Below, piece by piece: positions 55,813 through 57,583 of a stretch of DNA of 64,000 bases. This DNA is from Podarcis cretensis (lineage: Eukaryota). A model generated the notes under the pieces. It was not told the DNA's origin. It did no database searches and saw only the letters and a program-made list of their open reading frames with translations. The stretch's first letter is position 1, and every line of letters begins with the position of its first letter. Both the position numbers and the translations under genes were made by a program. The DNA is taken from assembly GCA_951804945.1 (NCBI GenBank), contig OX638149.1:87916001-87980000 (forward strand), in the 5' to 3' direction.

Positions 55813-55993
55813 AATTAGCTAATACCAGAGCAAATGCCTTTAGTTATGAAAAGAGAGATCATCTTCATCACAGATTCCATCAATTGGTCGATAAATGTGC
55901 TCGAATCCATCTTGCTCCATATTGTCATATGCATTTGATGTTGCTATGTTGGTTCTGGTTTGGGAAGCTCCTTCCCCACCAAGGCCTCTGCTT
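55813..55993 (-). pseudogene. Decayed, out-of-frame remnant of the AKAP4 C-terminal coding sequence, now behind the stop codon
   Basis: In a shifted frame from ~55910 the - strand reads MDSSTFIDQLMESVMKMISLFITK, matching AKAP4 GQFIDKLVESVMKLCLIMAK. Two 1-nt shifts are needed to join it to the main ORF, and a TAA follows. Confidence 0.7.
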
Positions 55994-57583
55994 CTATCCC
56001 CTGTTTTTGTCCCCGCAGTTCTCATCTAGATTTAAGCCAGCCTCGTCCAAAATCTTCTGGACCATGGACATTATGAGGTGTCCTTTATCTTTCAGGCTGT
56101 CCGAATGGCAGGGGTCTGCTTTTCTGTCACATGACCTGTGTGAGAATTTTGGGCCACAGCTCCCCTCCGCCCTGTCATAGTCACGGGGAATGTAGCCATA
56201 TGAGGAGGTGTTGCATTCACGAGGTCTACAGTCTTTGTTCTTTTCCAGCAGGTGCTGCTGTATCTGCTGCAATGCTGTTACCAGAAGCTCTCTGGCATAC
56301 AGATCCAGGGATTGCTTGTCCGGCACCTTGGTTCCTGCTGGAAAATGTTTCCTTGGGCATGGGCCACCTGCTCTTTCCTTTCCATAGTCACAAGACTCCC
56401 TTTTCATGGATGCAAACTGCATGCCCTGACTGCAATGGCCCCGGGCCCCCCCTGCTTTATAGGTTGCAAAGGTGAAGTTTTGAGCTCTGTACTGCTTATC
56501 GTCTCCCAAGATGAGTTTAAACAAGCGCTTCACCATGACTTCCAAAACCTCCGCGGTCTTCTGGGTTCCAGCCTTGTAAAGGTTCCTCTTCAGTCCACAA
56601 ACAAAATCAGAGTCTGTCATGAGCGCCCCTGTGATGTTGTGCAGGTTTTTCATAGAGGAGTCTATTAAGTCTGATACAATTTCCTTGGTGTGCTTCATAA
56701 GTACCTCTTTCAAAACGGCACATGCTGGCGGAGGGTGCCTACCTTTCTGGACTCTCATGGTCTTCAGGAAAGACAGCATCATGTCTGAAGCAACCTGATT
56801 TGCATACACCATCATCCCTTTGCTTATGGAAGTCATGTCGTCTGCTTTCCTGTCTTTGTCCATATACATGGCTTCATGTTGCTTGAAGTCATTGTGGTTT
56901 GCCATGTCCCCTGAAAATGGGTCGTCCCTCTTGATTTCTGGAGGCGTCTTGCATCGTTCCATATTCTCAGCTATATTCACCTTGTTCCTGTTGCTGTGGG
57001 GGCTAATCATATGGCGGGTGCATTTCCCTGAGCTTTCCCATTTCTCCTTGATCTCCTTGCGTGTCATTTCAACAACTAAGTTGCAGAGCTTATTGGCGTA
57101 ATAGGCAATGTCATCTGAGTTCCCTCCCTCACTACCGGCGCTGGAAGAAGTGTTGTTGTTGTTCCTGGATGCCAAGTCAAGTACCTTAGTCTTGCGAGGC
57201 TTTCTTAAGGATGTCAGCGCATGCTGGAATCCAACTGCATATTTCTGGAGGTCATTGTTGAGCCAGCTGACAACATTGTCATCATCAATGGAGCCTTGCT
57301 TGAAAAGGCAAACTGCTCCCTGAGTATTAAAGTAGCTGTTTTGCTCATTGTCCTTGATTATGATGACCTCCCTCTCTTCCATATTCGCCAAGTCCAGCTC
57401 ATTGTCAGGGTCAGAGATGTTCTTGGATTGACCAGTAGCTCCATCTCTCTCCTTTGAGTTCAGGTTGGCAACGTCGACAAAGCAAATCACTTTACGTTCC
57501 TGGTCTTTATGTGTATCAGGTCTGTAGAGGTTTATCTTGCACACACCAGCCTGGCTGCTGAGCCAGTCTACTTCCTGTGCCAT
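55994..57583 (-). CDS. AKAP4: A-kinase anchor protein 4-like (AKAP3/4 family), intronless, 529 aa, C-terminally truncated; probable retrogene
   Basis: Single ORF with strong Kozak context (ACAAAG ATG G). Motifs VDWLSSQAGVCKINLY, DQERKVICFVDV, VCLFKQ, WLNNDLQKYAVGFQHAL, YYANKLCNLVVEM, SISKGMMVYANQVASDMM and HTKEIVSDLIDSSMKNLHNITGALMTDSDFV match AKAP4 as I recall it; AKAP3 lacks the ICFVDV...EVIIIKD block. The symbol denotes family similarity; one-to-one orthology is doubtful. Confidence 0.85.
   Translation of the reverse strand: MAQEVDWLSSQAGVCKINLYRPDTHKDQERKVICFVDVANLNSKERDGATGQSKNISDPDNELDLANMEEREVIIIKDNEQNSYFNTQGAVCLFKQGSIDDDNVVSWLNNDLQKYAVGFQHALTSLRKPRKTKVLDLASRNNNNTSSSAGSEGGNSDDIAYYANKLCNLVVEMTRKEIKEKWESSGKCTRHMISPHSNRNKVNIAENMERCKTPPEIKRDDPFSGDMANHNDFKQHEAMYMDKDRKADDMTSISKGMMVYANQVASDMMLSFLKTMRVQKGRHPPPACAVLKEVLMKHTKEIVSDLIDSSMKNLHNITGALMTDSDFVCGLKRNLYKAGTQKTAEVLEVMVKRLFKLILGDDKQYRAQNFTFATYKAGGARGHCSQGMQFASMKRESCDYGKERAGGPCPRKHFPAGTKVPDKQSLDLYARELLVTALQQIQQHLLEKNKDCRPRECNTSSYGYIPRDYDRAEGSCGPKFSHRSCDRKADPCHSDSLKDKGHLIMSMVQKILDEAGLNLDENCGDKNRG

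Follow-up and report, generated by a model that had tools for sequence, protein, structure and literature searches.

A shortened, intronless AKAP4-like gene of Podarcis cretensis and the remnant of its lost C-terminus

How does a gene come to end well short of its full-length relatives, and what becomes of the coding sequence left behind its new stop codon? We asked this of an AKAP4-like locus in the lizard Podarcis cretensis, located in a stretch of 64,000 nucleotides (assembly GCA_951804945.1, contig OX638149.1, positions 87,916,001 to 87,980,000) that we refer to as the window. An earlier interpretation of the letters alone, in the following the sequence-only reading, had described an open reading frame (ORF) whose ancestral tail survives out of frame, and had taken its product for a stably truncated protein rather than that of a decaying pseudogene. 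We consider it probable that the gene is an intronless AKAP4 duplicate with an in-frame TAG shared among squamates, two frameshifts downstream of it and its C-terminal domain deleted, and that it likely still works as a shortened sperm-tail scaffold and predicted PKA anchor. The features of the locus are collected in Table 1.

Table 1. Positions of features at the AKAP4-like locus (window coordinates unless a different locus is named)
Feature	Position	Strand	Evidence or remark
AKAP4-like ORF, intronless, TAG stop	55994..57583	-	Pfam AKAP_110, Podarcis raffonei match
5' element, distal tandem copy; CRE-like TGATGTCA at 57986-57979	57844..58013	-	homology to proximal copy
5' element, proximal copy; CRE-like TGAAGTCA at 57759-57752	57650..57788	-	common to all AKAP4-like copies
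Asn run, residues 141-144 (NNNN)	57152..57163	-	aligned with mammalian proAKAP4 cleavage stretch; PMC8801034 (accessible part)
Helix A, predicted PKA-anchoring (YYANKLCNLVVEMT)	57062..57103	-	aligned to rat helix A motif; PMC6933317 (accessible part)
Helix B, predicted PKA-anchoring (VYANQVASDM)	56780..56809	-	motif and predicted helix
In-frame TAG, where two paralogues have TAT (Tyr) and another has CAC (His)	55994..55996	-	paralogue alignment; unchanged in 4/4 runs
Post-stop remnant in ORF frame, KQ RPWWGRSFPNQ	55951..55993	-	alignment by eye, moderate certainty
Frameshift 1 interval, net +1 mod 3	55930..55957	-	stop-to-Met 76 nt vs 81 nt in 682-aa paralogue
Fossil YDNMEQ codons, +1 frame	55912..55929	-	homology to paralogues
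Frameshift 2, 16 nt vs 12 in paralogues	55896..55911	-	Met-to-Phe 25 vs 21 nt
Fossil helix codons FIDQLMESVMKMISLFITKG, +2 frame	55836..55895	-	blastn/tblastn; also in stitched Varanus and Anolis models
Downstream ORF, 31 codons, A at -3, G at +4	55815..55910	-	ORF list
Deletion junction	55811..55836	-	length comparison with paralogues; also crossed by Varanus and Anolis models
Ancestral 3'UTR core, conserved in paralogues and orthologues	55688..55811	-	alignments
ATTAAA at the position of AATAAA/ATTAAA in five paralogues	55722..55727	-	alignment
Second ATTAAA	55714-55709	-	motif scan
Distal ATTAAA	55468-55463	-	motif scan
Unspliced contig, RNA-type run X18	55460..58173	-	RNA status is the tool's guess
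Unspliced contig, RNA-type run X20	55575..57810	-	RNA status is the tool's guess
Last exon of Wnt gene	28319-28822	+	sequence match
CDK5-activator gene, intronless, beyond the window	L015 8803-9744	+	sequence match; about 25 kb past ORF start

The open reading frame and its product

The frame comprises 529 codons plus TAG (1590 nt) on the minus strand, from the ATG at 57583 to the TAG at 55996-55994, and its end, aac agg gga TAG, is confirmed as it had been read from the letters. Its product scores 138.6 bits against Pfam AKAP_110 (cut-off 25), as befits a member of the AKAP3/AKAP4 family, is 98% identical to an annotated 529-aa protein of Podarcis raffonei, and is 35-39% identical to mammalian proAKAP4/AKAP82 across the whole query. 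The automatic NCBI label ‘A-kinase anchor protein 4-like’ already covers it (e.g. XP_053257641.1), a name that is silent on the truncation, its history and the modular family to which the gene belongs. The likeness to mammalian proAKAP4/AKAP82 lies in the prodomain, the Asn run at the cleavage stretch, both PKA-binding helix motifs and the central helical domain, all of which we infer the protein to retain. Unlike its mammalian counterpart, it stops at 529 aa and lacks both the FIDQL helix and the C-terminal PARG-like domain (LQA.LQW ... LLANL). That domain is missing from the protein, its DNA has been deleted, and the gene accordingly does not qualify as a full-length AKAP4. Furthermore, the mammalian AKAP4 gene has introns, whereas the window gene has none.

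In mammalian AKAP4, the N-terminal prodomain is cleaved off, and the positions of the cleavage stretch were taken from the accessible part of PMC8801034. The Asn run aligned with this stretch is found in 38/38 of the short proteins defined below, and is absent from the 682-aa paralogues, the tuatara and the turtles among those examined. At the PKA-binding positions given in the available text of PMC6933317, both anchoring motifs are present (YYANKLCNLVV and VYANQVASDM) and predicted to be helical; the predicted structure of the protein as a whole is of low confidence (mean pLDDT 42), and its N-terminal domain, too, is not confidently predicted. Helix A starts with YA in the short clade, as opposed to YV in the 682-aa, tuatara, crocodilian, mammalian and most turtle proteins among those checked. 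In the part of PMC12083921 available to us, FA or YA at the helix start is the reported RI determinant, so that this difference from mammalian AKAP4 can be tied to RI preference.

Because the prodomain, the Asn run, both helices and the central domain are retained, the short protein may add PKA and R2D2 docking sites, leaning towards type I PKA, to the fibrous sheath, without doing the job of the PARG-like domain. It would most likely serve the fibrous sheath as an accessory anchor, holding type I PKA or R2D2 proteins (PMC3398308) without the C-terminal module. In a gecko, an Akap4 transcript follows active spermatogenesis (PMC4795608), and a fibrous sheath is present in squamate sperm (PMC11276731), in each case according to the accessible portion of the source. 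Judged from its sequence, the 529-aa protein would be expressed in the sperm tail, lose its prodomain by cleavage and bind PKA.

Four public runs from four studies, one of which (X1) may be the source of the assembly, were compared with 55560-56130. Both observations that would have refuted the sequence-only reading failed to appear: 4/4 runs showed no indel in 55813-56010, an unchanged TAG and no joint; since all four show the same structure, it is not an assembly error, and no splice joint that would skip the stop was seen in the runs compared with the locus. X18 and X20 are putative RNA, with tissue not on record and with no run that carries the locus being recorded as RNA; their contigs are deep, and the flanks have no cover apart from a repeat. 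Two further runs, of raw single-cell RNA with tissue not on record, yielded essentially no reads on the gene in the 6% or so that was read and carry no weight here; run X22 shares next to none of the sequence words of the locus. A short high-copy repeat at 55300-55390 draws all the reads of these single-cell runs. Relative to X18, the ORF shows 12 synonymous and 8 non-synonymous differences (pN/pS 0.17, binomial p 1e-4), these 20 being counted among the 30 listed of 32 differences.

The window protein has 267 homologues, of which 120 were listed; among 197 proteins compared, 38 measure 490-545 aa and lack the C-domain motif, several of them being near-duplicates within a species. In 33/38 of these short proteins, from geckos to snakes, the end falls at the same site, while 3/38 extend 8 residues further, probably by a secondary shift at the stop, and 2/38 are divergent gene models. 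The 8-residue extension was observed in two named geckos and one other protein (P0009, P0011, P0018). The short forms make up one clade (support 100/100) of geckos, a cordylid, an amphisbaenian, a monitor, iguanians and snakes, with a branching order that resembles the squamate tree. No short form was found in tuatara, turtle, crocodilian or mammal proteins among the 120 of 267 matches listed, the tuatara sitting in an unresolved node of the careful tree. The truncation is common to squamates and not local to this genome; from a stop shared with geckos, we take it to date back roughly 200 million years. Gene and promoter presumably originated together, on the squamate stem or close to it.

Given the shared end in 33/38 proteins and the low pN/pS, this is an old gene under purifying selection and not a pseudogene: instead of a disabled, neutrally evolving frame, we find an open frame that is conserved together with its end. 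The view of a stably truncated protein is strongly supported in this way. Together with the same structure in 4/4 runs, these observations rule out an assembly error or a young pseudogene, a reading for which we found no supporting point and whose probability we consider negligible. Outside squamates, two tinamou AKAP4-like models of 372-374 aa (P0121, P0123) have neither N region nor C domain, possibly by a parallel truncation in birds, and turtles and crocodilians have several full-length AKAP4-like paralogues (P0051-P0085), apparently from duplications of their own.

The stop codon and the sequence behind it

At the stop site, the window reads AAC AGG GGA TAG AAG CAG, a full-length paralogue AGA GGC TAT AAG CAG and a third AKAP4-like copy AAC AGG GGC CAC CGA CAG. 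Because the paralogues carry TAT or CAC there, the stop is an in-frame nonsense change of a Tyr codon, and because they also show the G run before this codon, the run is ancestral. The sequence-only reading had placed the cause of the truncation in a first frameshift at the CCCC run; the alignment around the TAG excludes this, and both shifts lie further downstream. Homology in the ORF's own frame persists for about 13 codons beyond the TAG, where the remnant, aligned by eye, matches KQ...RPQR.KALSKQ of the paralogue after an in-frame loss of 4-6 codons. ‘NRDRSRGLGGEGASQ’ is not the ancestral reading. The fossil tail itself is real.

Frameshift 1 is likely a 4-nt insertion near 55954-55948, and frameshift 2 consists of four additional bases between MEQ and FIDQ. 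The frame arithmetic of the earlier interpretation was right for the +1 frame, which ends in YDNMEQ, and for the +2 frame, which gives MDSSTFIDQLMESVMKMISLFITK, then GICSGIS and then a TAA at 55817-55815. In blastn, 55928-55860 is 78% identical to the 682-aa paralogue over 69 columns (E 7e-8), with similar matches to the 312-aa and 790-aa paralogues, and in tblastn, 9/9 full-length AKAP4 queries found their best match in 6 kb of downstream DNA at the fossil helix (E 6e-4 to 0.013). Given this E-value and the placement by all nine queries, the homology of the tail is not due to chance.

Between the helix and the poly(A) signal, 374 nt are missing at the junction relative to the 682-aa paralogue and 466-476 nt relative to three others. 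With this deletion of about 370-470 nt went the C-terminal domain, the former stop codon and the first part of the former 3'UTR; the window sequence re-enters the ancestral 3'UTR at 55811. The conserved AKAP3/4 end, which the sequence-only reading could not recognise, is therefore not unrecognisable; it was not found because the DNA for the PARG-like domain has been deleted. The model of the 682-aa paralogue is at its most confident in this domain (pLDDT mostly 77-86 over residues 631-682). When residues 578-682 were compared with 48,161 chains, PARG took both top places (Z 6.8, rmsd 4.8, 95 aligned; Z 6.7, rmsd 3.9, 91 aligned). These Z values are modest, below 8, but they agree with the PARG-like macro domain predicted for the C-terminus of AKAP3, AKAP11 and SPHKAP in the accessible part of PMC11377751, a domain that the paralogue would share and the window gene has lost. 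A Foldseek search with the 682-aa model returned no match at E up to 0.001.

Constraint or decay behind the stop

As we picture its history, the change of the Tyr codon to an in-frame TAG ended the protein at 529 aa, two +4 nt frameshifts lie downstream of it in non-coding sequence, and the deletion of the C-terminal domain, be it before or after the stop arose, left the distal fossil (about 55895-55820) abutting the old 3'UTR core. The proximal fossil would simply have decayed, and the distal fossil is likely held by selection on the RNA sequence, perhaps because spermatids need it to store the mRNA, to time its translation or to form its 3' end. We believe, with some confidence, that the proximal part has decayed and that the distal part lies in a conserved 3'UTR block, a belief based on protein models, not on DNA.

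The comparison with coding paralogues fits near-neutral decay: an unbiased helix block is identical at 50/67 positions (P 0.04-0.2 for d 0.5-0.4) and the linker at 7/17, and the neutral branch of the window gene is 0.63 (0.27-1.17). An extreme conservation of the fossil (38/41) was dismissed, as it came from hand-picked blocks. Across species, two stitched UniRef models, P0174 of Varanus and P0176 of Anolis, read through the fossil directly into the UTR core; because they cross the same junction, the deletion is shared with both. Their matches to the translated non-coding DNA of the window, 18/23 (by eye, with one gap), 9/11 and 22/30, come from stitched protein models rather than DNA and are biased towards AKAP4-like residues; the real ORF proteins are 64% and 58% identical to Varanus and Anolis. 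Simulated neutral change at d=0.5 gave means of 8.0, 4.1 and 10.2 and reached the observed matches only with d near 0.2, these neutral distances between lacertids and Varanus or Anolis being assumed values. Since the 22/30 stretch never coded and the reading frames shift between species, the constraint looks to be at the nucleotide level.

Among runs X18, X20 and X14, 55675-55888 holds zero differences (P 0.0015-0.006 for an interval chosen afterwards), and 55889-55993 holds seven, including a D to N change in the FIDQ motif of X20. A comparable case is the sister 312-aa gene, which has an independent in-frame TAA six codons past this gene's stop site (L007 sense 2810 onward), and whose lacertid post-stop DNA is matched by snake proteins at 12/15, 15/18 and 14/16 positions in different frames. 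On these comparisons, the distal fossil and the adjoining 3'UTR are likely more conserved among lacertid, monitor and anole than neutral change allows, pointing to an RNA element over a peptide. As for the 3' end, the two ATTAAA hexamers suggested earlier as the end of the transcript are indeed at 55727-55722 and 55714-55709, but they need not be its only end, as RNA-type contigs run 150-270 nt beyond them. Six copies, and in part a seventh, have a conserved 18-nt motif (55746-55729) just before the poly(A) signal.

A plainer view accepts the same truncated gene and regards the fossil as slowly decaying, functionless 3'UTR filler. It is in line with the paralogue comparison, in which block and linker fit a d of about 0.3-0.4, with the seven differences in 55889-55993, and with the lack of an Rfam match at E up to 1 in a scan of 55400-58200. 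Likewise, RNA folding is not unusual for 55690-55900 (z -0.8) or 55810-55900 (z -0.1), only 55810-55993, one of four intervals, reaching z -2.0. We nevertheless judge this view unlikely, as the Varanus and Anolis models have, at 9/11 to 9/13 positions, the residues by which the fossil departs from every coding paralogue (MISLF..KG.CS), and as the sister 312-aa gene shows the same pattern. That the distal fossil is instead translated, supplying the lost helix in trans as the 31-residue peptide of the downstream ORF, appears improbable. The ATG at 55910 has a favourable look, with A at -3, G at +4 and the helix in frame, and the helix-coding part is the conserved one; yet the frame differs in the Varanus and Anolis models, where, as far as stitched protein models rather than DNA can tell, the TAA aligns with Gln or Glu. 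Moreover, the invariant Asp is changed to Asn in X20, the sister gene has a TGA inside the same helix, the neighbouring UTR is equally conserved without ever having coded, and none of the small homologues of 23-74 aa shared three words with the ORF, a weak point given that such ORFs are rarely called. The downstream ORF is thus probably incidental.

That a longer C-terminus is regained by readthrough, frameshifting or splicing is a very remote prospect. On paper, some GT..AG pairs could bring the helix back into frame, but 20/20 of them have at most 7/17 pyrimidines before the AG, and no run shows a joint, with the proviso that contigs drop rare forms. Recoding would take one readthrough plus two shifts, and the DNA of the C domain is absent regardless.

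The AKAP4-like family in the genome and its setting

The genome (G000) holds two full-length and six partial AKAP4-like genes, eight out of eight being intronless. The two full-length genes (682 and 790 aa) lie in tandem on C5, which also carries AKAP3, while the window gene lies on C1 and five further copies on C9, C16, C8, C10 and C2 (L007, L008, L011, L009 and L010), with open frames of 312, about 175, 176, 339 and 198 aa, respectively. The 312-aa copy consists of the N region and the helices, without central or C domain, the copies of about 175 and 176 aa of the N region only, the 339-aa copy of the C half and the 198-aa copy of the C domain. Each partial form is a supported clade, and counterparts of the same architecture are found in geckos, skinks, monitor and snakes for the 312-, 175- and 176-aa forms, in snakes for the 339-aa form and in one protein for the 198-aa form.

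Like the window gene, the full-length squamate genes of 682 and 790 aa are intronless and have the same 5' CRE-like element, coding modules and 3'UTR core; unlike it, they keep the C-terminal domain. The Asn run is missing from the 682-aa gene and the helix motifs are altered in the 790-aa gene, whereas the window gene keeps both features. Lizard AKAP3 has introns, as opposed to the intronless nearest paralogues of the window gene. The copies may have arisen by retroposition or by DNA duplication. They are spread over 7 contigs, and their homology fades just after the poly(A) signal, which is followed by A-rich stretches; a promoter-like element has been copied too. The motif TGA(T/C/A)GTCA, CRE-like by what we take to be the CRE consensus, occurs in 9/9 5' elements, of which the window holds two. 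This tandem duplication of the element in the window (57650-58013) comes with a CCAA repeat at 57995-58045.

Tentatively, and with considerably less confidence than for the single gene, we suggest that squamates may have split AKAP4 into separately encoded, conserved modules that are co-expressed from a shared CRE-type promoter and jointly build the fibrous sheath, and that two of these genes may, independently of each other, have turned their formerly coding tail into a conserved 3'UTR element. Coding remnants behind premature stops are commonplace, and the protein has database entries already. In mammals, however, it is an open question what the cleaved prodomain of AKAP4 and its predicted PARG-like C-terminal domain do, and squamates appear to carry natural, long-conserved deletions that leave the prodomain alone, the C domain alone or all but the C domain, making the role of each module directly testable. 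The prodomain-only genes imply that a free prodomain is functional by itself, and the locus would be a datable case of coding sequence becoming constrained 3'UTR. Gene models that stitch into the fossil, as the UniRef models P0172, P0174 and P0176 do, are shown to be wrong. A literature search, with supplements and most subscription papers outside its reach, turned up no account of squamate AKAP4 genes being truncated or multiplied, and this old, squamate-wide set of domain-deleted genes appears to be undescribed.

The window gene sits between a Wnt gene and a CDK5-activator gene, which we take to be WNT10A and CDK5R2. WNT10B, which would lie beside ARF3, was rejected as the Wnt neighbour, as there is no Arf match near the window and the CDK5-activator gene was found instead. 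Elsewhere in the window, two fragments at 20753-21208 and 52213-52551 on the minus strand resemble what we assume to be CR1-type LINE reverse-transcriptase ends.
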